Below, one piece after another: positions 7,112 to 39,036 of a stretch of 64,000 nucleotides of DNA (positions within the stretch are counted from its first letter, which is position 1; each line of letters starts with the position of its first letter). Position numbers and translations under genes: made by a program. The stretch is taken from assembly GCA_049322915.1 (NCBI GenBank), contig JBMOPW010000014.1, forward strand, positions 541,527-605,526. The letters run 5' to 3'. A model generated the notes under the pieces. The model saw nothing but the letters and a program-made list of their open reading frames with translations. It was not told where the DNA came from and did not search any database. This DNA is from Candidatus Zhuqueibacterota bacterium. GTDB taxonomy: Bacteria; Zhuqueibacterota; Zhuqueibacteria; Thermofontimicrobiales; Thermofontimicrobiaceae.

Positions 7112-10100
7112 ATGGCTAAACTCAAATACTTCCTTTCAATTGGTTTGATCGTGTCATTCGTTTTGCCGGCGTTTCTGCTGTCCCAGACAACGGGTAAGAT
7201 CGATGGCTATGTCAAGGATAAGAAGACAGGCGATCCGCTCCCAGGCGTCAATGTGACGCTGAAAACGACGGCAATTGGAGCGGCTACCGGGGCTGATGGT
7301 TATTACTATATGATCAACGTCCCGGCCGGGGACTATACTGTCACCGCCTCCATGATGGGCTACAAAACCTATTCTGTCCAGAACGTTCAGGTGGTCATTG
7401 ATCAGACAACCCGGGTTGATTTTAGTCTGGACGAGACGGTACTGGATGTCGGTGAGGAAATTGTCGTTACGGCTGAGCGACCGCTCATCGATCCCAGTGT
7501 GACGTCCAAAGTCTCCACCATGTCTTTTGATGAAATTAAAAATATGCCGGCGGAAGATATCAGCCGGGTCCTGGCGCTGCAATCGAACATCACCGTGCTC
7601 ACCAACACCCCGTATGCGAAGAGTGGCTACAACATCAGGGGGATTGAAGACATCCGGATGCGCGGAGGACGAAACAATGAGCTTGGCTTATTCATCGATG
7701 GCATGAAAGTGGGCAATCCTCTCTTCGGCGGATTTGGCACACGGATAAACAACAACGCCGTCAACCAGATGACAGTCGCTGCCGGCGGATTCAGCCCGGA
7801 GTACGGCAATGCGTTATCCGGCGTGATCAACCTGACCACGCGCGAAGGCGGCTCCAAATTATCCGGTCAATTGGAATATGGCACGTCCGTCCCATTTGGC
7901 CTTACTGCCCTGGCGTCTCAACGGCAGGAGGAGCGAAATTATCAGAATGTGCAATTCAGCATGAACGGACCTGTGCCATTCATCCCCAATCTGTCCTTCT
8001 TCTTTTCGACAGACCTGAGTTCGGAAGCAGGTACGCTCTATGAATTCGATGATATTATCTGGGATGACAACAGAGGCGATCTCCCCACATCCGCTGAGCT
8101 ATTCCAGGATTTCATTGAGGATGGTTCCATGGATTTGATCACCAAATCCCAGGTGGAGAGCGTACTTTCGCCAGTCGATGTGGGCGGAAAGCGCCGGTTC
8201 ATCAATCCCATGGATACATGGAAGGGCTGGCACGGCATGGGCTGGGATAATAGTTTCGATTATCTGGGCAAGCTCACCTACCGCATCAGTCCCATGATAA
8301 AACTGTCTCTCAGTTTGTCCCAATCCCAGAGCTACTCCCAGATCAATGACTATCACGCCGGGTATTATTACCATTTGCCCGGAGAGTGGTACAATGTGGA
8401 TGCGAGTCCCGTGGATACCCGAACCAATATTGACCGGCTCCTGGTGAGCGAAACCAGCGGGGAGACGTATTACCTCGAATCTGGATTGCCCTTCCCGGAC
8501 GAGTTCCCCGGCAGCGGCGGCGCGTATCAGGTATGGCACAGAAACGGCTCCGGCATGGCTGCGAGAAACGTCCAGTTTCGCCAGAGCAATCGTCAGGGTC
8601 TTGTCTGGAACCATACGATAAATCCATCCAATTTCTACACCATTCGTATTCAGCGATTCTTCCAGTCGCGGCGCATCCGCGTCATCAACGATTACAATCA
8701 TGTCTATGATGAAATTTTTGGGATGAAGAATATCTTCTCACCGGACTGGGATAACATCAAACAAAAGGATCAGTACAATCATTACAGCACCTACGGCGTC
8801 CTGGATCCCTGGGAAGGTTACTTCCGGGTCCGATACGACAATGTGTATTTTGAGGGAGATTCGAGCATCACGTACGACGTTCGGCTGGACTTCACGTCGC
8901 AGATCAACCGAAATCATCAACTGAAATTTGGCGGACAATTCGTGTATTACGATCTCAGCCGCCACGATGATCAGGGTTCATCCGGCCCATCGGATCATCC
9001 GACGGTGTACCACATGTTCCCCAAAGAGGGCGCGTTGTATTTGATGGATAAAATTGAATACGGCACTGTGGTGTTGAATGCGGGTATGCGCATTGACTAC
9101 GCCAATGCTGAAGGGGAAATGTACGCGGATCCATTGGATCCCATTGGCGAACAGGATATTGAAACGCCGATGATCGAATACAACGATTTTGAACGATCAA
9201 AAAAGAAATTCAAGGTAAGCCCGAGAATTGGCATGGCCTATCCGCTCACTTCCAAATCTGTCGTTCATTTTAATTTCGGGCATTTTTATCAGACGCCCAA
9301 TTATCGGGATTTATACCGCGCAACCGGCCAAGCGCGCGAACTGACCCTCAGAAGCGGCGAACTGATGGGCAACAACAATCTGGAACATGAAAAATCCATT
9401 CAGTACGAAGTCGGTTATCAGCAACAGATCGGCGATATCTACGGGCTTAATTTGACACTGTGGTCCAAGGAGACCACCAACCAGGTTGGCTCGGTGTACG
9501 TGCCGCCCTACTCCGATCCGGGAGGCGAAAATCCATTTGGCTATTACGTCTTTTTGAATAACAATTTTGGATCTGCGCGTGGACTGGATGTGACCCTGCA
9601 GCGGCGTTATCGCGACTTCTTCTCCGGGACGCTGAATTACACCTGGTCACGAGCCCGGGTATTGAAGCAAACTTCCTGGGATGGCTACTGGGATGACGAA
9701 AGTTCCAATACCTTGCCCAAACGGGAATCCATTGCCTCCTGGGATCAGCCTCATTCCGTTCGAATCAACCTCAATTTCAGCATTCCAAAAGACGCCGGCC
9801 CCACTGTGTTCAATCAAAAAGTGCTCTCCAACTTTGGCGTGAGTCTGGTGTACTTCGGAGAAAGTGGACGCGTTTACACGCCATACATGGGCGAAGCCGG
9901 TTATCTGGAAGAGGAGAATTCAGCGCGCTGGCCGTTCTTTCACCAGTTCGATTTGCGCGCCTATAAAAATGTCGAAATCTTCGGCTTGACCTATTCCTTC
10001 TTCGCCCAGGTGCGAAACCTGTTCGATCGGCAGAATGTCATTGATGGGTATTCGCAAACCGGATCGGCGACCGATCCCGGCACTGCCAATGCCGATTATA

Positions 10101-10183
10101 GCGCAACGAGCATGGATGGCATCAGCATCAATAATTTTGGACCGCGTCGGGCAGTCACGTTTGGCGTGAGAATTCTGTGGTGA
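7112..10183 (+). CDS. TonB-dependent receptor with N-terminal carboxypeptidase-regulatory-like domain
   Basis: Signal peptide, TTGKIDGYVKDKKTGDPLPGVNV, plug motif RGGRNNE...GGFSPEYGNALSGVINLTTREG, barrel ending in aromatic W. Confidence 0.9.
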   Translation: MAKLKYFLSIGLIVSFVLPAFLLSQTTGKIDGYVKDKKTGDPLPGVNVTLKTTAIGAATGADGYYYMINVPAGDYTVTASMMGYKTYSVQNVQVVIDQTTRVDFSLDETVLDVGEEIVVTAERPLIDPSVTSKVSTMSFDEIKNMPAEDISRVLALQSNITVLTNTPYAKSGYNIRGIEDIRMRGGRNNELGLFIDGMKVGNPLFGGFGTRINNNAVNQMTVAAGGFSPEYGNALSGVINLTTREGGSKLSGQLEYGTSVPFGLTALASQRQEERNYQNVQFSMNGPVPFIPNLSFFFSTDLSSEAGTLYEFDDIIWDDNRGDLPTSAELFQDFIEDGSMDLITKSQVESVLSPVDVGGKRRFINPMDTWKGWHGMGWDNSFDYLGKLTYRISPMIKLSLSLSQSQSYSQINDYHAGYYYHLPGEWYNVDASPVDTRTNIDRLLVSETSGETYYLESGLPFPDEFPGSGGAYQVWHRNGSGMAARNVQFRQSNRQGLVWNHTINPSNFYTIRIQRFFQSRRIRVINDYNHVYDEIFGMKNIFSPDWDNIKQKDQYNHYSTYGVLDPWEGYFRVRYDNVYFEGDSSITYDVRLDFTSQINRNHQLKFGGQFVYYDLSRHDDQGSSGPSDHPTVYHMFPKEGALYLMDKIEYGTVVLNAGMRIDYANAEGEMYADPLDPIGEQDIETPMIEYNDFERSKKKFKVSPRIGMAYPLTSKSVVHFNFGHFYQTPNYRDLYRATGQARELTLRSGELMGNNNLEHEKSIQYEVGYQQQIGDIYGLNLTLWSKETTNQVGSVYVPPYSDPGGENPFGYYVFLNNNFGSARGLDVTLQRRYRDFFSGTLNYTWSRARVLKQTSWDGYWDDESSNTLPKRESIASWDQPHSVRINLNFSIPKDAGPTVFNQKVLSNFGVSLVYFGESGRVYTPYMGEAGYLEEENSARWPFFHQFDLRAYKNVEIFGLTYSFFAQVRNLFDRQNVIDGYSQTGSATDPGTANADYSATSMDGISINNFGPRRAVTFGVRILW

Positions 10184-10253
10184 ACAGCCTGTTGGACCAT
10201 GCAGCCAGGTGAGGTTTGGAGATTAGCAAGAACAGAAAAATTGGAGACTTGAA

Positions 10254-13200
10254 ATGGCAAAACCAAAAAATATAACGATATGGATATTGGCATTGATAAT
10301 AGTGTCACTGACAGGCCCCATTTCAGGCATCGCTCAGGAAAGATTGCCAGTCATTGATGATCAGAAAATTTTTCCAACTGACTTGAAAAAGCCGGCAAGC
10401 TTGTTTGATCGCGGAATCGCGTTTATGGATGCCGGAGAAATGCAGGTGAATGGCGTGGAAAATTTTGGCGTGATCGGCAATCAGGGTCTGCCTTATTGTA
10501 AACACGGCTTTTGGGGTGAAGTCCGTTGGATCATTCCCTATCTGGCGGTTCCGCCCCAACCGTGGGCTACCGCTATTCGGACGGAAGAGGGCGATATCGT
10601 CGATCGAAGTCAGTATTACAACGTCATCGAAAGCATCACCATGCATTTCGGCGTCGGCGTTCAGGGTTGGGGCTACACTGACTGGGAGGCGCAGGACCTG
10701 GGCAGCACGCAATTGATGGGCGATGACACCTGGTCTGATGTGCCGTTGATTGCTACCAGCACCCGTCCCAATTCCTGGCCGATGGGATATTTTGATAAAG
10801 ATCCGCTGTCGCCAACCTACAAGCAGTTCATTGAAACGCCCGACGTGCGGCATTGGCCTGGCTACTGGGCGCTGGACCCGGATCAGGAATCGCCCACGTT
10901 CGGACAGCCGCTGGAGGGCAAATTCGTTTCGGATAAAGATATTTTTTATATCATGAACGACAAGTACAATGGCATTCGCTGGGGCGATGAGGTCAATGTG
11001 GGCTTCCCCATTGGCTTTGATATGGAAGTCTCTGGCTATTGCTATTCGACCCGATCGTACAAAGATATTGTATTCTTCAACTACAATCTAATCTACCGGG
11101 ATGATATTACCGATCCCAACAGGCAGTCTCACACCGGCACAATCGATAGTCTCTATTTCGGTTTCCTGATCGATCCGGATCTTCCCGGACGCGATCCCTG
11201 GGGAAATACCGGCTACGAGCCCGGCTGGGCTGAAGACGATTACTGCATTGCCGATACGGTGCGCGACATTTTTGTAATGTTCGATAAAGACGGGTACGCG
11301 AAGGATGTCGATTCGCCGTACAGTGAAGGCCCTGTGTCCGCGCATGGCATTGCATATTTGAAGACGCCGAAGGATATCGGACTGACATCATTCCATTACT
11401 TCACACAGGAGGATTTCGACGCGGAATCCGGCGGGCAGAAAATGGAAAATATCATCTACGCTATGGCCAGCGGCCGTAAAGAAATTCTCACAGCGCAGGA
11501 TCAGCAGAAATATTTCCACGGCAGCGATCCGTTATTCGATGACTTGAATCTGCTGCGCGACTTGCAGGAGAGTCAGCCGAACGGAAGCCGTCCTGACCCG
11601 TGGTTTATCATGTCCTCCGGGCCATTCAGCGCAACGCCGGGAGACACCATCGCGCTGCATTTCTGCATCGTCGGCGGGGATGATGACCCCGGCGCTCTGG
11701 ACGCCGATGGCTTTCCGACCAATCCCTACGAAGTCCGTTTCGCAGATATCATCAATAATTTTGAAAAGGCCATGGAGTTGTACAGCAACAGCTTCCAGGG
11801 TACCGGCCCACCATTGACACCGACATTGAGCGCCGTGGGCACCAAAGTCCTGGATGAAAACGATATCCCGGTCATTTACGCCGAGGATGGCAAAGTCACG
11901 TTGTATTGGGATAATATCGCTGAAGAGACCATTGATATTTTGACGAAAGAGAAGGACTTCGAAGGCTATAAAATCTACAAAGCCTACTTCGATCGGGACC
12001 TGGATTATATCGATTGGGGGCAGGAGATTTATGAAATAACGGAGAAAGGTACTGTGGGCGATGTGCTCGCCTATGAACCAGTCTTCCAGTGCGATGTAAT
12101 CAATGACTACGAAGGTCTGGACCCCTATCAATCCTGGTTCTACCTGGGCGATAATAGCGGCATCGTTCATTCGTGGACGGATACCGATGTGACCAACGGC
12201 GTTCGCTATCGCTATTGCATCACGGCCTATGATCATCCGTATCCGGATCGATTGTTCAATGCGAATGAGACAGCCAAAGGCACGTCATCCAAGGACCTGT
12301 GCGTTGTGGACGTCATTCCCGGCGTTCGGCCCGGCGGCTATGTGCCAGCCAATATCGACACGGCATTTAAGCGCGTCTCCGGCCTTGGCAACGGCGTGCT
12401 GCAACTGAACGTGGTGGATGATAACGAGGTGTTGGGCCATACGTATCGGATTTCATTCAGCGATTCATCGGGCAAGCTCGCTTACAGCGTGTTTGATGAA
12501 GATGCTAAAATTTTCAAAGTGACCGACCATTCGCCCATCACAAACGAAAGCAGCGGCATCGATCCGGAGCCATTCCCGTTCTTCGACGGTGTTGGCATCA
12601 AAGTGATCAATTACGATAAGCCGGAGTATCTGGCCAATGAGTCGGGTTGGACGAAAATCCTGGGACCTGATACGAGCGATTATCGGATTAATGTTGTTCC
12701 ATTCACCCCCATTGCCGCGGACTATGAAATTCGGTTCCTCGGCGAAAACGCGGACACCAACGCCATTGGCGCCATGACGTTCCCATTCCAGGTATGGAAG
12801 GTGAGCGTTACCCCGCCGAAGCAAATGGATGTCTTGTATACCCCGCCCACCGGCGTGTATCCGAGCGGGGGACAAATTCGAATCTGGGAATATCTCACGC
12901 CGGGTTCGACTGTCCGAACGTTCACCTGGGTCTTTTCCATTACATGGGCCCCGGATACTGTCGTTGTTGGAACGGACACGACGTTCGTCAAAACATGGGG
13001 AGCCAGCCAAGAGCCGGCTGTTGGCGATGTCTACACGTTCAGGACCAAGAAACCCTTCAGTAATGATGTGTTCACATTCAGCACGTACAAGTTATCGACG
13101 AAAGCGGTGACCGAAGATGAACTGGACGCGATCAAAGCTGTGCCCAATCCCTATATTGTCGCATCGAAGACTGAACTTTACACTGGATCCTCAAAATGGG

Positions 13201-13459: not shown

Positions 13460-14491
13460 ATGAAAAAAGTTATTTTATTGATAGTGATCGCGGTGAGTGC
13501 TCAGGCGCTTTTCGGGCAGGGAGAAGTGAATAAGGTCGGCACGACGGCTGCAAATTTCCTGAAGCTCGAAGTTGGCGCGCGCGCGATGTCCCTGGCGGGC
13601 GCGTACACGGCCGTCGCCAATGACGTCACTGCGCTGCAATGGAATCCGGCCGGGATTTCCTCGCTGGGAAGAATCACGGCTTCGTACAACAACACCAACC
13701 TGTACGCCGGCATCAAACATCAATTCCTCGGCGTGGTGGTCCCGATGGGAATTAACAATTTCTTCGGATTTTCATTGAACTACGTGGATATCGGACGCAT
13801 CGAAAAAACAACCGTGGATGACCCGGATGGCACCGGCATTATGTTCGATAATTACAACATGTCCGCCGGCGTGAGCTATTCGCGCATGCTGACCGACCGC
13901 GTCACGTTTGGCGTGACCGGGCGCTGGGTGCATGAACAAATCTGGGAGCAGGGCGCCGATGGCGTCAGCATGGATATGGGAATCATTTTCGCGCCTCAGG
14001 TGAGCGGCCTCAAAATTGGAATGAGCATCACCAATTTCGGACCGGATATGACCATGGATAACGGCCCGTTGACGACGTTCGCCTACGAACCACAGGAAGA
14101 AATGGAAGGCGTCGGCAACCGGGACCTGGACGCCCAGCTTCAGGTTGAAAAATATGCGCTGCCCATCAGCTTTCAGTTGGGGGCGTCCGTCGATATTATG
14201 GGAGCGAACAGCTCGTTCGTATCGGATAAATCCAATCGCATATCCGCTATTTTCGAGCTGAACGACTCGTTCGATAATGCCATGCGCGCGAAATATGCCC
14301 TGGAATATGAGTGGCGACATCTGTTGGCCTTGCGCGCCGGCTACAAACAAAATTACGATCTGGCCACCTTCTCCTGGGGCGGTGGTTTGAAAATTCCGGT
14401 CCGTGGAATGGACCTGCGATTCGATTACGGCATGGCCGATTATGGCGATCTGGGATATGTCAATGTCACGTCGATTCAGATCGGTTTTTGA
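13460..14491 (+). CDS. PorV/PorQ-family outer-membrane beta-barrel
   Basis: KVGTTAANFLKLEVGARAMSLAGAYTAVANDVTALQWNPAG signature; terminal Phe. Confidence 0.85.
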   Translation: MKKVILLIVIAVSAQALFGQGEVNKVGTTAANFLKLEVGARAMSLAGAYTAVANDVTALQWNPAGISSLGRITASYNNTNLYAGIKHQFLGVVVPMGINNFFGFSLNYVDIGRIEKTTVDDPDGTGIMFDNYNMSAGVSYSRMLTDRVTFGVTGRWVHEQIWEQGADGVSMDMGIIFAPQVSGLKIGMSITNFGPDMTMDNGPLTTFAYEPQEEMEGVGNRDLDAQLQVEKYALPISFQLGASVDIMGANSSFVSDKSNRISAIFELNDSFDNAMRAKYALEYEWRHLLALRAGYKQNYDLATFSWGGGLKIPVRGMDLRFDYGMADYGDLGYVNVTSIQIGF

Positions 14492-32048: not shown

Positions 32049-35000
32049 ATGATTGAAATTGCCGGTTTTATAGGTAAAATATTATCTGAAAAGGCGCTCG
32101 AAAAATTGTTGAACAACATTTTTAATGGCAACAAATCCGCGCTGCAAAAAGCGTATGAAAAGGCGTTTGAAAATACAGTTAATTATTACGAGTATAATTA
32201 CCGCAACAAGTATGGTGCAAAGAATAACCGCTTTTTTAACTACCAGTCCGCGGAAGAAGAACTGATTAAACTCACCTTTGTCCGCCAAAATCCTGACCCG
32301 GACATGCTGGCGCAGATTGAGTGGGAGCATGGTGTAACAACTCCCCCAAAAATTATTTTAGATTTTGTGAACTACCTGCGTTATCAGATGTCCCAATTCA
32401 GGGAATGCGAGGACATTCTCGTGGAAAAGGATAAATATCAATCGTTGATGAATATTGATAAAAATACAGATGGAATTGCCCGAAATATTAAAGAGCTCAC
32501 CAACCATTTTGTAAAAAAAGAACCCGAAGAAGATACCAGGCCGCTCCACTGGAAACACCTTTACAACGCCTTTAAAGACCGGAAGCTGCATGAAGTCTCC
32601 ATAAAACATGTTGGCGGTGGTTTGTTGGGACCGGAAACCCTCCCGCTGGAAGATGTATTTTTTGTGCAGGATGCAGGTTTTCGATGGCTGGGAATTGGAA
32701 TGAAATCTGCCAAAGTGCAGAAGAAAGAAAACAAAAACAGTGAACTGTTCGATGAGCTGACTGTTTGCGAAGGACATGTTTGGCGAGCGCTGCAGGAGCT
32801 GCAAATAAATACAAGCCATATAAGAAAAATTATGGATGGAATCGATAAAGAAAAAATTTTAAAAATTGCCGCCGAGTTTGCAGTAAAATATAATAAACAT
32901 TCAACGGTTTTCGGCAATCAGCATTTTCAGCAAATTGTTGATCAATTGGCCCAACGATTTGAGTTGACTTCTTCTCACATCATTGCCGCGTTGAGTCTTT
33001 ATTTTACAGAAACGATTAAACGCGAGCCAGTCCTTGATTTGCTGAAACCGCCCTGTTCCGCATTTGTTATCGGGGACGCCGGCGTGGGAAAAACAACGGT
33101 GATGCGAAGGCTGGCTCTGAATTTATTCCATCGACTGGAAAACGGCGAAGAAAATGTACCGCTGCCTTTATTTGTCAGGCTTGACAAGATCGAGGATTAT
33201 ATAAAAGAAAAACAGAGCATCCATCAAGGGAAAAAAGCGTTGCTGCAATATATCGCTGACCATTGGAAATCGCATGTCAGTCATGAATCCGACATTTCAG
33301 CGTCTGCCATTGAACAATGCGAATTACCCCTGCAAATAATGCTGGATGGGTTGGATGAAATCCCATCCGCCAATATCCGGGAAAAATTAATCCTCGTCAT
33401 TCGCGATCTTGTTCAGGGACAAACGTGCAATATTATTATCACCTCCAGGCCGACTGCCGTGGATACGGCGTTAATTAAAACTTCTGAATTAAATGAGATT
33501 CGCCTGCTGGAATTAACATCCAAACAAACAAATGAATTTGTGAACAAATTTTTTGAAATATACAATTGTCCGAAATCAGGCAAAGCCGACAGCGCCAAAT
33601 TCAAATCTGCGTTAGAGCTTTCCGACGCGGCCATGCTGTTTGCCGGCAATCCGCTTTACCTGACCGTGATGATTTTAATGCACAAGAAAAATGAGGTGCT
33701 GCCCAAAAAAAGGTTGGAACTGTATGCGGAATTTTACCAGATGTTGCTGTTGCAGCGTTCGACCGGGCAATTCAAAGGCAAACTGGCAGACAGGCCTGCG
33801 CTGCGCATTCAGGATGAAAAAATTATTCACTGGGGCGAGGCCGTTTATACGCCTCTGCTGCAATGGATCGCTTACCTCACCCACAGCAATGACGCAGACA
33901 GCGTTAGCATCGAGAAACAATATGTGATTGACGCGATTAAAAAGGAAGATTTGCAGCAGGAGTTAAAACTGATCAGCCTGGAAAATCTGGCAGAACGATT
34001 CATTAATTTTGCCGATGAAGAGCTGGGATTGCTGGTCTCGCGGGGACAGTTTTACGGATTCAGCCATCGGTCGCTGCAGGAATTTTTAGCGGCCATGCAT
34101 CTGGCTGATTATCAGAAAGAACCATCCATTGAACAGTTTTGGACGGACCAGGCGCTGAAAAAACCGGATCGCTGGATGGAAGTGGCCCGGCTGCTGTTCT
34201 GCAAAATTCTGGATAAAAAATTTTTCGCGACCTGGGTGCGGGATATAAACGATACAAAAGATCCCCGCGTGATCCGGTTAATTCAATCCATTATTTTCGA
34301 TCTGGAAGAGTTCTTTCCCGGGGGCGGCGGCATTCAGTCGCAGAAGGAAAGTGTGCAAAAAGCGCTTGTTTCCCGGCGGGATAAATCCCACGGCTCACCG
34401 GACATGTTCCTCGCCTGCTCCGATGCACTTGGTTCCATGGATGTTCCGCCAATTTCCATTGCCGATCCGCCTGTGGTAAAATTGGTGGCACGGGAGCCGT
34501 TCACCATGGGGATTAATTATTTCGATGATGATACGAAACCTGAATTTAAGGCAACTTTGTCACCCTATTACATGGGGCAATACCCGGTCACCAATAAGGA
34601 ATTTGCCGAATTTATCAACGATGGCGGGTACACCGAGGAAAAATATTGGCGCAGCAGTCATGAAATGTTTACTTTTGATGGAAAAAAAATTTTAGAGGAT
34701 TTAAAAAATAAAACTCCTGAGTATTGGGATGACGAACGATTTGGCAAAAAACGTCCCCTGGTCCCTGTCGTGGGCGTGAGCTGGTACGAGGCCATGGCGT
34801 ATTGTTTATGGTGGAATGAAAAATATGGCGCGGCATGGGCAGAAAGTCATGGTCGTAAAAAAATACTGGTGCGCCTGCCCACCGAAGCGGAATGGGAATT
34901 TGCTGCGCGTGGCTATTCAGGCAGAAAATATGCCTGGGGCGATGAAAATATTGAAACGGACAGGTGTAATTTTTCTTCCTCCAACTTAGACAGAACCTCG

Positions 35001-35300
35001 ACTGTCGGCAGCTATCCCCGGGGCAAAACGCCGGACGTCGATCTGTACGACTTGAGCGGCAATGTCTGGGAATGGTGCATCGATTGGTACAATGAGAAAT
35101 TTTATGCGGAGTGCAAAAGACAGGGTGTCGTGGAAAATCCTGTATGCGCCAGTAAAGGTTCGTACCGCGTGATGCGCGGCGGTAGCTGGGACTTCACTGC
35201 TGACTACTGCCGATCGGCGAATCGTAGCAGGGGCCGTCCTGGAAGGCGTAACAGCCTTGTTGGCTTCCGCCTGGTGTTCGTCCCGCAGTCAGTTGTGTAG
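32049..35300 (+). CDS. DGR target 1: NACHT/STAND NTPase + FGE-sulfatase (C-type lectin fold) domain protein
   Basis: Walker A GDAGVGKTT, Walker B MLDGLDEI, ITSRP, NPLYLT, FSHRSLQEFLAA; FGE motifs VTNKEF, PVVGVSWYEA, RLPTEAEWEFAARG, LYDLSGNVWEWC, RGGSW, GFRL. Confidence 0.92.
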   Translation: MIEIAGFIGKILSEKALEKLLNNIFNGNKSALQKAYEKAFENTVNYYEYNYRNKYGAKNNRFFNYQSAEEELIKLTFVRQNPDPDMLAQIEWEHGVTTPPKIILDFVNYLRYQMSQFRECEDILVEKDKYQSLMNIDKNTDGIARNIKELTNHFVKKEPEEDTRPLHWKHLYNAFKDRKLHEVSIKHVGGGLLGPETLPLEDVFFVQDAGFRWLGIGMKSAKVQKKENKNSELFDELTVCEGHVWRALQELQINTSHIRKIMDGIDKEKILKIAAEFAVKYNKHSTVFGNQHFQQIVDQLAQRFELTSSHIIAALSLYFTETIKREPVLDLLKPPCSAFVIGDAGVGKTTVMRRLALNLFHRLENGEENVPLPLFVRLDKIEDYIKEKQSIHQGKKALLQYIADHWKSHVSHESDISASAIEQCELPLQIMLDGLDEIPSANIREKLILVIRDLVQGQTCNIIITSRPTAVDTALIKTSELNEIRLLELTSKQTNEFVNKFFEIYNCPKSGKADSAKFKSALELSDAAMLFAGNPLYLTVMILMHKKNEVLPKKRLELYAEFYQMLLLQRSTGQFKGKLADRPALRIQDEKIIHWGEAVYTPLLQWIAYLTHSNDADSVSIEKQYVIDAIKKEDLQQELKLISLENLAERFINFADEELGLLVSRGQFYGFSHRSLQEFLAAMHLADYQKEPSIEQFWTDQALKKPDRWMEVARLLFCKILDKKFFATWVRDINDTKDPRVIRLIQSIIFDLEEFFPGGGGIQSQKESVQKALVSRRDKSHGSPDMFLACSDALGSMDVPPISIADPPVVKLVAREPFTMGINYFDDDTKPEFKATLSPYYMGQYPVTNKEFAEFINDGGYTEEKYWRSSHEMFTFDGKKILEDLKNKTPEYWDDERFGKKRPLVPVVGVSWYEAMAYCLWWNEKYGAAWAESHGRKKILVRLPTEAEWEFAARGYSGRKYAWGDENIETDRCNFSSSNLDRTSTVGSYPRGKTPDVDLYDLSGNVWEWCIDWYNEKFYAECKRQGVVENPVCASKGSYRVMRGGSWDFTADYCRSANRSRGRPGRRNSLVGFRLVFVPQSVV
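35156..35288 (+). repeat. DGR variable repeat VR1
   Basis: 133 bp colinear with the TR; 15 mismatches, all at TR adenines. Confidence 0.95.
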
Positions 35301-35401
35301 TTATTCAATTTTCCTGTGAGCAAAACGAGCTGTTTGAACGGAGTGAACGAGGCGGCGAGGGACGAGCCGCCGAGAGAGTGGAGTGAAAACAGCGAGTTGG
35401 G
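35289..35401 (+). repeat. Post-VR conserved element (IMH/hairpin region), copy 1
   Basis: 113 bp, 4 mismatches to 38019-38131; not present after the TR. Confidence 0.85.
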
Positions 35402-35456
35402 GGGGATGTATAAAATTAGTGAAAATACATTATAAATAGGCTGATTAGATTGAAAC

Positions 35457-35543
35457 CTGTCATTGCGAGGAACGTTTTTTGTGACGAAGCAATCCCCTTG
35501 GGCACAGTAGATTGCTTCGACAAAAACCGTCTCGCAATGACAG
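35457..35543. repeat. 87-bp palindromic element (GTCATTGCGAG...CTCGCAATGAC type)
   Basis: CTGTCATTGCGAG/CTCGCAATGACAG outer arms and CGAAGCAATC/GATTGCTTCG inner arms. Confidence 0.8.
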
Positions 35544-35599
35544 TATCCTAGAAAGATTTAGATGTACTATGCCAATATATTGAAATGGGCATCAATCGC

Positions 35600-35732
35600 A
35601 GGTTCGAACCGCGTGATGCGCGGCGGTAGCTGGAACAACACTGCTGACAACTGCCGATCAGCGAATCGTAACAGGAACAATCCTGAAAGGCGTAACAACA
35701 ATGTTGGCTTCCGCCTGGTGTTCGTCCCGCAG
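35600..35732 (+). repeat. DGR template repeat TR
   Basis: 34 adenines, 11 AAY codons in the target frame; all 99 non-A positions are identical in VR1 and VR2. Confidence 0.95.
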
Positions 35733-35862
35733 CTCACAGGAAAGTTGGATGACTACCTCTGAACAGATTGCTGTCCCACTCGCTGAAAGGCGATAAATAA
35801 CGAAACAGAATACACAGCGCTGGTAGGGCAAATGGATGTTTGTTTCGAAGGCGCTGTGTGTT
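35733..35862 (+). ncRNA. Putative structured spacer of the DGR template RNA
   Basis: Hairpins TCGC-tgaaag-GCGA and AATACACAGCGC(35809-35820)/GCGCTGTGTGTT(35851-35862) enclosing TGGTAG...CGAAG. Confidence 0.55.
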
Positions 35863-35900
35863 TGATAATTGGATTGTTTTCAAGAGGAAAGGTTATACAA

Positions 35901-38030
35901 ATGGTTGAGATTTTTAAGCCCATTATTGATCTGTTAACAAACCCTTTATCTCATTTATTTAAAACTCTCGGATTCGGTGACAAGGCGGCAAATGCCTTTG
36001 CAGCGGTTTTGCTTGCATTAATTTTCTATCTTATCATTATCTTATTGAAAGATCAATTTCGAAGGTTTAAAAATAGGCGCAGCGCCAGAGATTTAAAACC
36101 CGAATTTGATTATAAGACAATTAAAGGCTTTCGTGAAATTTTTATTCCCTCAAGATATGATCGGATTTCTCCCAATAGGTATGATAATCCCCATGAGGCG
36201 CATAAGCATAGTGAACCCCGTAAGCTTATTCCATTTATGTTAAAAAAGTCATTTAACGAACGGGTTGAAAATGAAAAGTTTTATTTAATTCTTGGAGACT
36301 CCGGGATGGGGAAGACCGCATTTATGGTCAATTTGTATATAAAATTTCATTCAGTTTTCAGATTCAACCGGAATCATAAAATGAAATTATTTCGTTTCCA
36401 GCCGCCGGATATAGATGATCCCGAAGACGTAATTGAGAGAATAAAAAAGATAGATCGCGAGGAAGCAAAAAATACAATTTTATTATTAGATGGATTAGAC
36501 GAAGACCCTTATATTTTATCCAAAGATCCGAAAGTCACCGATGACGCTGCTTTTGAGAAGAGATTAAATAATATCGCCAGCAGCACTAAAAATTTTTGTG
36601 ATGTTGTTATCACCTGCCGTACACAATATTTTCCACAGGAAGAGTTGCAGGATTATGTCCTTAGTATTCGAAAACCTGATGGCGGATTTTTTAAATTAAA
36701 TAAATATTACTTGTTTCCCTTTTCTGATAAAGAAGTTAAAAAGTATTTAAGAAAAAAATATGGAGTGCTCAGATTTTGGAACCGGCCAAAAAAGAAAAAA
36801 GCGAAATTGTTAGTTGAGAATTCTCATAAATTAATGTCCAGACCGATGTTGCTCTCGTATCTGGATGATTTAGTTGTTGAGGAGGATGTTAAATATAGAA
36901 ATTGTTATCAAATTTATGAAACGCTGATTGAAAAGTGGATTGACCGGGAAAGTAAAAAATGTAAAAAACCAAATGAACAGGAGAAATTTAAAAAAAATTT
37001 AAGAAAGCTGGCGCACGAAACTGCGCTGGATATGTACGCGAAATGGCAATCCGAGGGTGTGTTGTTTCTTAAAAAAGAGGATACCGATAACCTGGCAAAT
37101 AAGTATAATATTGAATTAAAACCTGAAGAGGTTAAAGGCAAGTCCTTGCTCACCTGCGATCCGTTGCGAAACTGGAAATTCGCCCATAAATCCATTCTTG
37201 AATATTTTCTGGCAATAGAATGTTTTAATAAATTGGAGTTTGCAGTAAACTTCAATTTCACCGGTATGGACATGGTGAAACATTTTTATGAAGAGATGCA
37301 GCCCTTTATTAATGCAACCGATTTTGTCAAAGTGGAATTTGGTGTTTTTAAAATGGGTGATGAGTATGGCGATCTAGGCTCTAGTGAAAAACCGGTGCAT
37401 GATGTAAAAATTTCCGATTTTTATATGAGTAAAACTTTAGTGACGCAAAAATTCTAGAACGATATTATGGGAAGCAATCCATCACATTTTAAGAATGGAG
37501 GAGAATACCCGGTTGAACAAGTGAACTGGGATGATGTTCAGGAATTTATTGAAAAGTTACACCAAAAAACAGGCATGAAGTTTCGTTTGCCCACAGAGGC
37601 TGAATGGGAATATGCAGCCCGCGGCGGCCACAAAGCCCCGGTAAAAGATGGCGTGCATGTTGGGAAATTCAGGTATGCCGGCAGCGATAACCTGGATGAA
37701 GTGGGTTGGTATGAAGGAAATTCAGATAAAAAAACTCACCCGGTTGCCGGTAAAAAACCGAATGAACTGGGGCTGTACGACATGAGCGGCAATGTGTGGG
37801 AGTGGTGTCTGGACTGGTATGATGAAAAATATTATAAAGAATGTCAGAAACAGGGTGTTGTGGAAAATCCTGAGTGCACCAGGGAAGGTTCGTACCGCGT
37901 GATGCGCGGCGGTAGCTGGAACAACACTGCTGACTACTGCCGATCAGCGTATCGTCGCGGGGGCAATCCTGTTAGGCGTTTCGACTTTGTTGGCTTCCGC
38001 CTGGTGTTCGTCCCGCAGTCAGTTGTGTAG
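35901..38030 (+). pseudogene. DGR target 2: TM + NACHT NTPase + FGE/CLec protein interrupted by an in-frame TAG at 37455-37457
   Basis: ORFs 35832-37457 and 37467-38030 share a frame; VTQKF*NDIMGSNPSHF spans the stop. GDSGMGKT, LLLDGLDE, FAHKSILEYF; FGE motifs downstream. Confidence 0.8.
37886..38018 (+). repeat. DGR variable repeat VR2
   Basis: 133 bp colinear with the TR; 15 mismatches, all at TR adenines. Confidence 0.95.
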
Positions 38031-38131
38031 TTATTCAATTTTCCTGTGAGCAAAACGAGCTGTTTGAACGGAGTGAACGAGGCGGCGAGGGACGAGCCGC
38101 TGAGAGAATGGAGAGAGAACAGCGAGTTGGG
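38019..38131 (+). repeat. Post-VR conserved element, copy 2
   Basis: Near-identical to 35289-35401. Confidence 0.85.
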
Positions 38132-38203
38132 TTTGCGGCGTATTGATAGAATTAAATCTATTTTTGGTCTATGCACGTGCGCGTAATGTTAGTCGTTGAA
38201 ACG

Positions 38204-38857
38204 AGCCCCAACGGGGCGAGATACTTTAGCTCAGGGCAACGCCCTGAGTAGATGGTAATTAACACGAACAAATCACCACAACACCCATCAACAAACCGAG
38301 GGTGCCATCACCCAAACAGGAGAGAAAGGAGGAATGATGCCACAAAGCCTGTCCAAAGTATACATTCATTTAGTGTTCAGCACAAAAAATCAAAAAGAAA
38401 TTATCGATCCTGACATTGAAAAAGAGTTGTATCCCTACATGGCGGCGCTATTTCGTGAAAGCGATTCACCGGCGATTATTATAAATGGTGTATCGAATCA
38501 TGTGCATAATTTATTTTTACTCTCCCGGAAATTTGCAATCAGCCAGGTTGTTGAAAACGTAAAAAAGAAATCATCAAAATGGATAAAAACAAAGGGTGAG
38601 CGGTATAAATCATTCTATTGGCAAAACGGATACGGGACTTTTTCAATCAGTCGCACGCATGTTGATGTGGTGAAAAAATATATTTTAAACCAGAAATCGC
38701 ATCATGCACAGACCTCGTTTCAGGGCGAATACCGGAAACTCCTTAATAAATACAATATCGAATATGATGAGCGATATGTTTGGGATTAGGGCGTTTATTG
38801 AGTTCCGTGGTCATCAGGGCGTTGCCCCGGGTTGGGATAAGTCGCTCCGTTGGAGCT
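38204..38857 (+). mobile_element. IS200/IS605-like (Y1) element flanked by inverted REP-like double hairpins
   Basis: AGCCCCAACGGGGCG...CAGGGCAACGCCCTGA (38204-38247) and its inverted counterpart TCAGGGCGTTGCCC...CGCTCCGTTGGAGCT (38814-38857) flank tnpA. Confidence 0.75.
38334..38789 (+). CDS. tnpA: IS200/IS605-family Y1 (HUH) transposase
   Basis: YIHLVFSTK, NHVH (HUH), KKKSSKWI, WQNGYGTFSIS, YILNQKSHH. Confidence 0.9.
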   Translation: MMPQSLSKVYIHLVFSTKNQKEIIDPDIEKELYPYMAALFRESDSPAIIINGVSNHVHNLFLLSRKFAISQVVENVKKKSSKWIKTKGERYKSFYWQNGYGTFSISRTHVDVVKKYILNQKSHHAQTSFQGEYRKLLNKYNIEYDERYVWD

Positions 38858-39036
38858 AAAATTCAGAAAATTCCACCGCAAGGTTTTTTCCCTGGTATCG
38901 TCAAAACAAGTAGTCGTTCTAATCATGAATTAATTCAGACCAACCACAGGAAATTTTTTTAACGTGCATGGCAGATTTTTCGAATGTGACACATAGCGCA
39001 GAAATCCGGAGACAGAAACGTGATCGGGCGACTCCC

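Follow-up and report, generated by a model that had tools for sequence, protein, structure and literature searches.

The stretch analysed here, referred to as the window, comprises the 64,000 nucleotides at positions 541,527 to 605,526 of contig JBMOPW010000014.1 (assembly GCA_049322915.1) of a Candidatus Zhuqueibacterota bacterium, and it carries the repeats and target genes of a diversity-generating retroelement (DGR). At this locus, one template repeat (TR) lies between two genes for STAND/NACHT-CLec 'sensor' proteins, each of which has a variable repeat (VR) at its C-terminus (Table 1). The product of target gene 1 matches the Pfam families NACHT (1.3e-14, residues 339-503) and FGE-sulfatase (1.8e-50, residues 817-1076). 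Target gene 2 is interrupted by an in-frame TAG codon, and its two halves match nSTAND3 (7.3e-7), NACHT (2.4e-5, below the Pfam cut-off) and, in the C-terminal half, FGE-sulfatase (1.9e-39). In both targets, a P-loop NTPase (NACHT/STAND) domain is thus N-terminal to the variable CLec domain, and the VRs lie in the last 44 codons of genes whose CLec-type class is assigned from their Pfam FGE-sulfatase matches. When target 2 is read through, with the TAG taken as X, an alignment of 711 columns with an intact 710-aa homologue gives 66% identity and puts the TAG opposite a conserved Trp of that homologue. The same TAG is also present in a contig from sequencing run X1. No PADLOC model matches target 1 or target 2. 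STAND NTPases and conflict-system 'antigen sensors' were reportedly described as DGR targets by Kaur et al. in 2020.

Table 1. Features of the DGR locus, in window positions; the last row is in positions of contig C16 of the same assembly
Feature	Position	Strand	Description
Target gene 1	32049..35300	+	1083 aa, intact open reading frame; NACHT/STAND NTPase with C-terminal FGE-sulfatase (CLec-type)
VR1	35156..35288	+	Variable C-terminus of target 1, last 133 nt; differs from TR at 15 positions, each a TR adenine
VR1 target-site flank	35289..35321	+	TCAG and 4-nt linker (35289-35296), then X' (35297-35321), overlapping the target 1 stop codon
GC hairpin 3' of VR1	35351..35371	+	Stem GGCGGC/GCCGCC, conserved loop GAGGGACGA; predicted in every flank fold
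REP-like palindromic element	35447..35542	.	~95 nt; at the site of HRDC-RT in relatives
TR	35600..35732	+	34 adenines; homologous TRs 75-88% identical in six related loci
X	35733..35758	+	Start of the spacer RNA downstream of TR, 26 nt; reverse complement of X'
Conserved spacer core	35759..35860	+	CTGAACAGATTG..GTCCC..TCG, hairpin H1 35780-35793, hairpin H2 35828-43; intact
Target gene 2	35901..38030	+	STAND NTPase and FGE-sulfatase; in-frame TAG 37455-37457; start M24 placed by homology
VR2	37886..38018	+	15 mismatches to TR, all at adenines
VR2 target-site flank	38019..38130	+	TCAG and linker, X' 38027-38051, hairpin 38081-38101; 108/112 identical to the VR1 flank
C16 DGR	7981-10856		FGE-sulfatase target, VR 8800-8928; bAvd 9124-9477; TR 9482-9610; RT 9783-10856

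The original prediction had described a gap-free 133-nt alignment of the TR with both VRs in which only TR adenines differ, and it had named mismatches elsewhere as the observation that would speak against it. The alignment is reproduced by MAFFT, and no mismatch outside the TR adenines is found. All 30 mismatches, 15 in each VR, are at adenines of the TR, and the non-adenine positions are identical to it in VR1 (99/99) and in VR2 (99/99). As adenines account for 34 of the 133 nt, the hypergeometric chance that 15 mismatches all fall on them is 7.6e-11 per VR. The TR is in frame with the target open reading frames, and its adenines, which mostly lie within AAC/AAT codons, include 16 at first and 14 at second codon positions. 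Of the positions changed in one or both VRs, 22 in all, 20 are the first or second of a codon, again mostly AAC/AAT. The A-poor 3' end, GGCTTCCGCCTGGTGTTCGTCCCGCAG, is common to the TR, VR1 and VR2 without difference. An independent repeat search of the window returned the same three copies, and whole-genome BLAST found no further TR, VR or VR-flank copy of this family in the 6.25-Mb assembly. The repeat pattern is DGR-made.

The surroundings of the VRs are conserved to very different degrees. Upstream, 88/113 nt are identical between the two target genes, which agrees with the flank contrast that had been predicted. On the 3' side, 108/112 nt are identical between both flanks, a stretch that is not templated by the TR, and beyond it the likeness drops to 22/88. 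Eight TR-adenine positions are changed in both VRs, and at six of these the substitution is the same, where one-third would be expected for independent random changes. This suggests either common ancestry of both VRs or selection for the same residues.

The defining component of a DGR is its reverse transcriptase (RT), and none is found in the window or elsewhere on the 1.09-Mb contig. The DGR reading of the earlier analysis is therefore only partly supported; it holds for the anatomy of TR and VRs, for the restriction of changes to adenines and for the CLec-type (FGE-sulfatase) targets. The contig (C14; 1,092,223 bp) extends more than 500 kb from the TR in both directions and belongs to an assembly of 6.25 Mb in 45 contigs that is 96.3% complete. 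No RT, Avd (bAvd) or HRDC gene is present among the window open reading frames scanned (8 + 36). A search of the genome with the RVT_1 profile gave two matches, on contigs C34 and C16, and none on the window's contig. The first (C34:430973-431578) belongs to an RT-TPR-AEP-primase fusion with an open frame of 988 aa beside a Cas6 gene; it is CRISPR-associated and not part of a DGR. The second belongs to a complete Avd-type DGR of a different class from that of the window, and it is the sole DGR-type RT in the assembly. This enzyme of 357 aa has LGNQTSQ and YVDD motifs, [I/L]GxxxSQ being the hallmark motif of DGR RTs, and 15 of the 16 differences between its TR and VR have an A in the TR copy. 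The C16 TR is 73% identical to the window TR over 92 nt, in the coding-derived body only, and the flanks are unrelated. Upstream of the C16 DGR are genes for a Ser/Thr kinase and an FHA/Trans_reg_C regulator, and its target region contains a 227-nt tandem duplication.

The class to which the window locus belongs is apparent from its relatives. A DNA search of 61 related genomes gave six, from several families, that match both the TR and the ~130 nt following it, with 73-83% identity over ~270-283 nt. Four fetched related loci contain an RT (329-390 aa; IGNLTSQ, YMDD), and three of them a 153-157-aa HRDC-domain gene. Three of the four have the RT immediately upstream of the TR, while the fourth has the order TR, target-VR, HRDC, RT. 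The usual order in relatives is target-VR, HRDC, RT, TR-spacer, target-VR, all on one strand, with the RT 0-150 nt upstream of the TR. These cognate RTs are 66-73% identical to one another and only 34-38% identical to the C16 RT. The window carries the conserved spacer of this HRDC-class lineage, as seen in an alignment with 38 other spacers.

When the four cognate RTs and three HRDC proteins were compared with the genome by tblastn, the RTs matched only the C16 (34-38% identity) and C34 (26-29%) genes, and no copy or convincing fragment of a cognate RT or HRDC gene was found in the 6.25 Mb. The HRDC matches fall elsewhere in the genome, the best of them on C4 (E = 7.6e-7). A more permissive tblastn search for HRDC or RT remnants in 35250-35900 and 38000-39000 (word size 2, E up to 100) gave noise only, with a best E of 0.006 in a 1.6-kb database. 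A short RT match that overlaps the window TR was considered as a remnant and rejected, as it reflects the RT tail that overlaps the TR in relatives. Homology of the window to RT-bearing loci starts ~20 nt before the TR. The interval between VR1 and the TR is 311 bp, of which ~180 nt lie between the VR1 flank and the TR, and it includes the REP-like palindrome. Copies of this element occur in both orientations on contigs C44, C16, C26, C7 and C35, also at C14:117609, and many are present in the genomes of relatives. Judged from the layout of the relatives, the HRDC and RT genes appear to have been deleted at the window locus, and the deletion would be recent, because the VRs show no non-A drift yet. 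The same-genus genome G001 has only matches to the REP element and none to the TR/VR part; consequently, the loss of the RT cannot be dated by synteny. A promoter and terminator scan of 35250-35950 gave no plus-strand site, with counts as in shuffles. Since no promoter- or terminator-like site on this strand separates VR1 from target 2, the TR could be read through from target 1.

A further feature of this lineage is a complementarity between the spacer and the target sites. The beginning of the spacer, X, is matched by a segment, X', that follows each VR. In the window, a repeat search finds 25-nt arms, with 35732-35756 (3' of the TR) 88% complementary to 35297-35321 and 38027-38051. X' begins 9 nt 3' of each VR in the window and 5-8 nt after the end of TR/VR homology in the lineage. 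The window arms have three mismatches each, all of the G·T type. The window duplex, including the pairing of TCAG with CUGA, has an energy of -40.8 kcal/mol (z = -4.6 against shuffles); by contrast, the C16 Avd-type DGR shows no complementarity between TR flank and VR flank (z = +0.27). The paired segments differ between loci yet stay complementary. For instance, the window has CTCACAGGAAAG / TTTTCCTGTGAG, and relatives have the changed but still complementary pairs CTCATGGGTATGG / CCATACCCATGAG, CTCAAAAGCAAAG / CTTTGCTTTTGAG and CTCATAGGTAAAG / CTTTACCTATGAG.

This observation extends over a larger set of loci. A scan of GTDB genomes for the spacer core gave 24 loci, namely 15 real TR-spacer junctions and 9 chance matches that lack the TR end, and a scan of metagenomes for the TR-end/spacer junction gave 81 stretches. 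After three same-contig repeats were dropped, the lineage set comprises 93 loci with 96 junctions and 88 distinct sequences, among which some near-duplicate contigs remain. From it, 58 TR-VR pairs were taken; after six with less than 70% of mismatches at adenines had been set aside, 52 are left, which represent 45 distinct combinations. A duplex of 25-27 bp is found in 43 of these 45 (X, flank) combinations, at -28 to -55 kcal/mol with RNA parameters, the exceptions being L099 (a different flank) and L107 (an insertion). Five of the six set-aside pairs have the duplex as well. The mean energy is -41.6 kcal/mol for cognate and -31.6 kcal/mol for non-cognate partners (permutation p <= 5e-5), and the own flank is the best partner for 14 of 21 distinct X. 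In 39 of 46 distinct flanks, the invariant CUGA 3' of X can pair with the TCAG 3' of the VR. Each VR is followed by X', even those that lie +1.7 to +5.1 kb downstream of the TR and one that lies 7 kb upstream.

Covariation is seen in the individual base pairs too. Counted per column over 42 distinct combinations, 1172 of the 1260 cells of 30 pairs are paired, and both sides have changed in 12 pairs. A MAFFT alignment of 24 contiguous loci gives 93.8% paired cells and likewise 12 pairs (50 cells) changed on both sides. In 500 shuffles of the partners, none reached the observed percent paired, number of compensatory pairs, number of compensatory cells or covariation score, whereas 51 reached the observed count of extra pair types. 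When the partner is slid by 1-3 columns, only 31-47% of the cells are paired. Transition-type appositions are strongly asymmetric, with 75 of the G·T/T·G and 0 of the A·C/C·A type. Because of this asymmetry, the pairing is read as one that joins two sense strands, the TR transcript with the sense strand or mRNA of the target, and not as a double-stranded inverted repeat read by a protein. Two simpler origins of the complementarity were considered. That X' is a mere copy of X left by each homing event is ruled out as a full explanation by conserved bulges and by G·T-type mismatches that are shared across loci. That X and X' are terminal inverted repeats of a mobile HRDC-RT-TR cassette is rejected on account of the presence of X' at every VR, downstream ones included, and of the strand-asymmetric mismatch spectrum.

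These features point to a possible mode of target choice, which is proposed here tentatively. [quoted passage not shown] According to this model, the HRDC-class RT would copy the TR-spacer RNA, misincorporating at adenines. The 5' part of the spacer (X and CUGA), linked to the cDNA, would then anneal to the sense strand of the target 3' of the VR (TCAG, linker and X'), as the covariation suggests. RNA and cDNA would in this way come to lie end to end on the target sense strand, and docking would occur at the VR instead of the TR, whose 3' end otherwise equals that of the VRs. Finally, the mutated cDNA would replace the VR. Were the cDNA to start from the A of CUGA at the TR's last nucleotide, RNA and cDNA together would be collinear with the target flank's complement except for a small internal loop. 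The window contig has positive GC skew throughout; by the skew convention, the targets are probably co-directional with replication, with their sense strand as the lagging-strand template. In E. coli, the Bordetella element has its highest reported efficiency with the lagging-strand-template orientation (PMC12875486). Since X has an alternative partner in the 3' end of the TR itself, docking at the target might in addition serve to license reverse transcription; in folds, the 3' half of X, GGA(C/T)GA (GGATGA in the window), can pair with TCGTCC of the TR end.

Several points weigh against such a guide. The loci are related, so that cell counts overstate the number of independent events. X may instead pair with the TR end, and X' may pair as DNA or as the 3' untranslated region (3' UTR) of the target mRNA. 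In addition, single-sequence folds of the flanks are no more stable than shuffles (z = -1.09, +0.26 and +0.27). A rival to the guide model is that X:X' is an RNA-RNA pairing unrelated to target choice, in which the TR transcript binds the target 3' UTR or a stalk forms for the processing of a target-HRDC-RT-TR co-transcript. In favour of this rival, X' starts at the stop codon and precedes a hairpin and T-run that look like a terminator in relatives, and it is therefore part of the target mRNA. A mismatch spectrum restricted to the G·U type fits RNA:RNA as well as RNA:DNA, and in the commonest gene order X' and X bracket HRDC-RT-TR on one strand. Nevertheless, a single processing helix does not require X' after every VR, including the distant ones on both sides of the TR, and only 5-8 nt separate X' from the point at which TR/VR homology ends. 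The TR and VR ends being identical, a discriminator between donor and target is needed at this point. An RNA-RNA role of this kind is considered unlikely.

The proposed guide has parallels in known systems. In the DGR of Bordetella phage BPP-1, an IMH, a GC stem-loop after the VR and a spacer RNA with priming at A56 have been described, and it has been proposed that the cDNA-linked RNA primer pairs with the IMH DNA of the VR (Naorem et al. 2017, PMC5703328). The loci considered here share with BPP-1 a GC hairpin after each VR and a structured spacer after the TR. Some of this spacer is able to form a duplex with the TR 3' end in the manner of template and primer, and, in line with the proposal of Naorem et al., one of its segments is the complement of target DNA 3' of the VR (PMC5703328). 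Unlike in BPP-1, the accessory gene is HRDC and not Avd, and the RT of relatives is upstream of the TR. The duplexes differ as well, since that of the lineage has 25-27 bp plus 4 bp, lies beyond the IMH that is identical in TR and VR and is backed by covariation, while that proposed for BPP-1, from one element, would involve a primer strand of ~10 nt against the IMH (PMC5703328). How the cDNA finds the VR and avoids the TR during homing is described as still poorly understood (bioRxiv 10.1101/2023.10.23.563531, PMC12875486).

HRDC-containing DGRs are known as 'Architecture C', with 14 members among 372 and the Treponema DGR as representative (Wu et al. 2018, PMC5758913). The relatives agree with the published account of this architecture in their HRDC gene, an RT with [I/L]GxxxSQ, the TR and CLec-type targets, all on one strand (PMC5758913), whereas both HRDC and RT are lacking in the window. 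TR and VR have identical ends (IMH* and IMH) here, as Wu et al. note for some DGRs, for which recognition 'would have to extend downstream' (PMC5758913). In the text of the same article, only a GC-rich repeat after the IMH is mentioned, and no TR-flank/VR-flank complementarity (PMC5758913). No description of a covarying spacer/target-flank duplex in HRDC-class DGRs was found in the literature searched, which covered main texts, with supplements and subscription papers outside it. Lineage-wide X:X' pairing would thus be a new variant of DGR target recognition, and it supports the published proposal of pairing between RNA primer and target. A covarying complementarity of 25-27 bp, found in dozens of natural loci from several phyla, makes the pairing proposal of 2017 testable by compensatory mutation. 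If the model is true, retargeting needs only a matching X' beside a new gene, a simple rule for this DGR class.

Turning to the state of the window locus, it is read with moderate confidence as a recently orphaned HRDC-class DGR, of which the donor and target parts remain, the HRDC and RT genes have been lost and activity has probably ceased. The element is probably inactive, given that target 2 has a nonsense codon, the assembly has no cognate RT and the other DGR of the genome has an unrelated spacer. The original prediction had taken the perfect non-A identity, against divergence upstream of the VRs, as a sign of recent activity, which it does not demonstrate, as this identity fits recent homing and recent enzyme loss equally. 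Variation was looked for in assembled Logan contigs of four runs. Only X1 contains the locus (91% of the sampled words of 34900-38200), while runs X2-X4 contain conserved parts of relatives or REP copies. In X1, VR1 and VR2 are each represented by a single piece, at depths of 68.6 and 93, respectively, without difference from the window, and the flanks are at 60-78; the contigs break at repeat borders and have no alternative letters inside the VRs. As contigs drop rare variants, these single haplotypes are weak evidence, and they argue only against heavy ongoing diversification.

Some observations speak against an orphaned state. The absence of non-A differences in 2 x 99 positions, the intact spacer and the intact X' at both targets give the locus the look of an active element. 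As the assembly is 96% complete, a cognate RT could be encoded by the DNA that it lacks, by a further replicon or by other cells of the population; the contigs, for their part, cannot rule out rare VR variants. It is on these points that one rival relies, namely that the locus is still active and that a cognate HRDC-type RT, encoded in the unassembled 4%, on a plasmid or phage or in other cells, acts in trans. There is a precedent in Thiohalocapsa PB-PSB1, where incomplete DGR loci are reported to be still diversifying and structural variants with an intact RT are present in the population (PMC10907252). In addition, a TR copy that lacks an RT coexists with a cognate RT at locus L080, described below. 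By contrast, the 6.25 Mb hold no cognate RT or fragment of one, nor does any of five other genomes with RT-less loci, whose best RT matches to the cognate class, present in four of the five, reach 33-47%. Target 2 is broken by the TAG, and each VR is represented in the contigs by one haplotype at about the depth of the flanks. Activity in trans is thus regarded as a minor possibility that deserves consideration, and orphaning is preferred.

A second enzyme that might act in trans is the RT of the C16 DGR, which would then copy the window TR. Besides being the only DGR-type RT of the assembly, it serves a target that is also an FGE-sulfatase protein and a TR with 73% identity to that of the window over 92 nt, and RTs of its broad class are present in four of the five other genomes with RT-less loci. 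However, DGRs are frequent in these phyla, and therefore such co-occurrence means little. Moreover, the flanks of the two TRs share nothing outside the coding-derived body, the C16 element lacks the X/X' feature and its RT is distant from the cognate class (34-38% identity). In Bordetella, the RT-Avd complex has been reported to require its own spacer RNA (PMC6182149; bioRxiv 10.1101/2023.10.23.563531). A contribution of the C16 enzyme is therefore considered quite improbable. Finally, the idea that three paralogous repeats were kept alike by gene conversion and differ by chance, with no DGR involved, can practically be discarded, as only the absence of an RT from the window speaks for it, against 30 of 30 differences at TR adenines (7.6e-11 per VR), the presence of the same TR-spacer family beside DGR-type RTs in relatives and the position of 956 of the 1096 mismatches of the lineage's 58 TR-VR pairs at TR adenines.

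The preferred reading, an orphaned DGR, places the window among other loci of the same kind. Among the 59 junctions of the lineage with at least 1.5 kb of upstream DNA, the RT is directly upstream in 32, elsewhere in the locus in 4 and absent from the fetched DNA in 23, of which 13 have at least 3 kb on both sides. No VR is detectable for 14 of the 23 RT-less TRs, as opposed to 7 of the 36 RT-bearing ones. Non-A mismatches are more numerous in the VRs of RT-less TRs (12 against 38 VRs; one-sided Mann-Whitney p = 0.02), in rows that are not independent and include duplicate contigs. The share of VRs with no non-A mismatch, by contrast, shows no significant difference (3/12 for RT-less and 16/38 for RT-bearing TRs; Fisher p = 0.33), which leaves the comparison a weak one. 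RT-less copies are thus common in the lineage and tend to look decayed, and the window locus is among the best-preserved of them.

Three further loci show unusual arrangements. In L052, an adenine-mutated VR (14168-14300) ends an open reading frame of 1586 aa and is followed by a donor-type flank (X and spacer) in place of X'. This is the pattern expected to be left by recombination between VR and TR that deletes what lay between them, and it would be one route to the loss of the RT. The metagenome contigs L061 and L080 each contain two near-identical TR-spacer copies (257/262 and 260/262, respectively), which in L080 are 4.4 kb apart. L080 has one RT and one VR, and this VR agrees with both TRs wherever these have no adenine. 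In L061, a CLec gene and a remnant of ~55 aa of the RT C-terminus precede each TR.

Loci of this kind have been noted before in a related setting, as STAND NTPase-CLec DGR targets have been described as 'antigen sensors' of multicellular bacteria, together with incomplete loci that lack a working RT and the use of components in trans, including those of PB-PSB1 (Dore et al. 2024, PMC10907252). The window targets are similar to those described in that article, as they have a NACHT/STAND NTPase joined to a CLec (FGE-sulfatase) domain at the C-terminus, in which the VR lies (PMC10907252). HRDC, orphan loci and hairpins are not mentioned by name in its main text (PMC10907252). The window locus indicates that an adenine-only TR/VR pattern is no proof of a working DGR, since this locus no longer has the enzyme genes and one of its targets is broken. 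Pipelines anchored on the RT would miss such a locus, and a reading anchored on the repeats over-calls. If the orphan reading and the guide model hold, orphan TR/VR sets would be ready-made substrates for any incoming cognate RT.

Other elements of the spacer and the flanks are conserved as well. In the alignment of 39 spacers, compensatory changes in H1 and H2 were judged by eye. RNAalifold gives only a weak consensus for the 39 spacers (-8.3 kcal/mol) and for 43 VR flanks (-3.3 kcal/mol), and the hairpins seen by eye are not recovered. The hairpins at 35351-35371 and 38081-38101 follow the VRs only and not the TR. Their loop GAGGGACGA (35357-35365 and 38087-38095) is complementary to TCGTCCC near the 3' end of VR and TR, and 35 of 46 distinct flanks carry GGGACG at a distance of 67-73 nt 3' of the VR. 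RNAalifold pairs this loop with CGTCC of the VR end; the columns are invariant and hence show no covariation. An Rfam scan of 35000-39000 gave no match for the TR-spacer and only a sub-threshold match to Acido-Lenti-1 at the repeat of a nearby transposase gene. At this repeat, the left arm scores 33.2 bits against a gathering threshold of 37 (E = 6e-5). The gene itself (38334-38789; Pfam Y1_Tnp 3.4e-24) encodes an IS200/IS605-type Y1 transposase and lies between 44-nt inverted repeats at 38204-38247 and 38814-38857. Adjoining the VR2 flank, this transposase could be REP-associated and RAYT-like. A gene for an ECF sigma factor is also present downstream of the locus.

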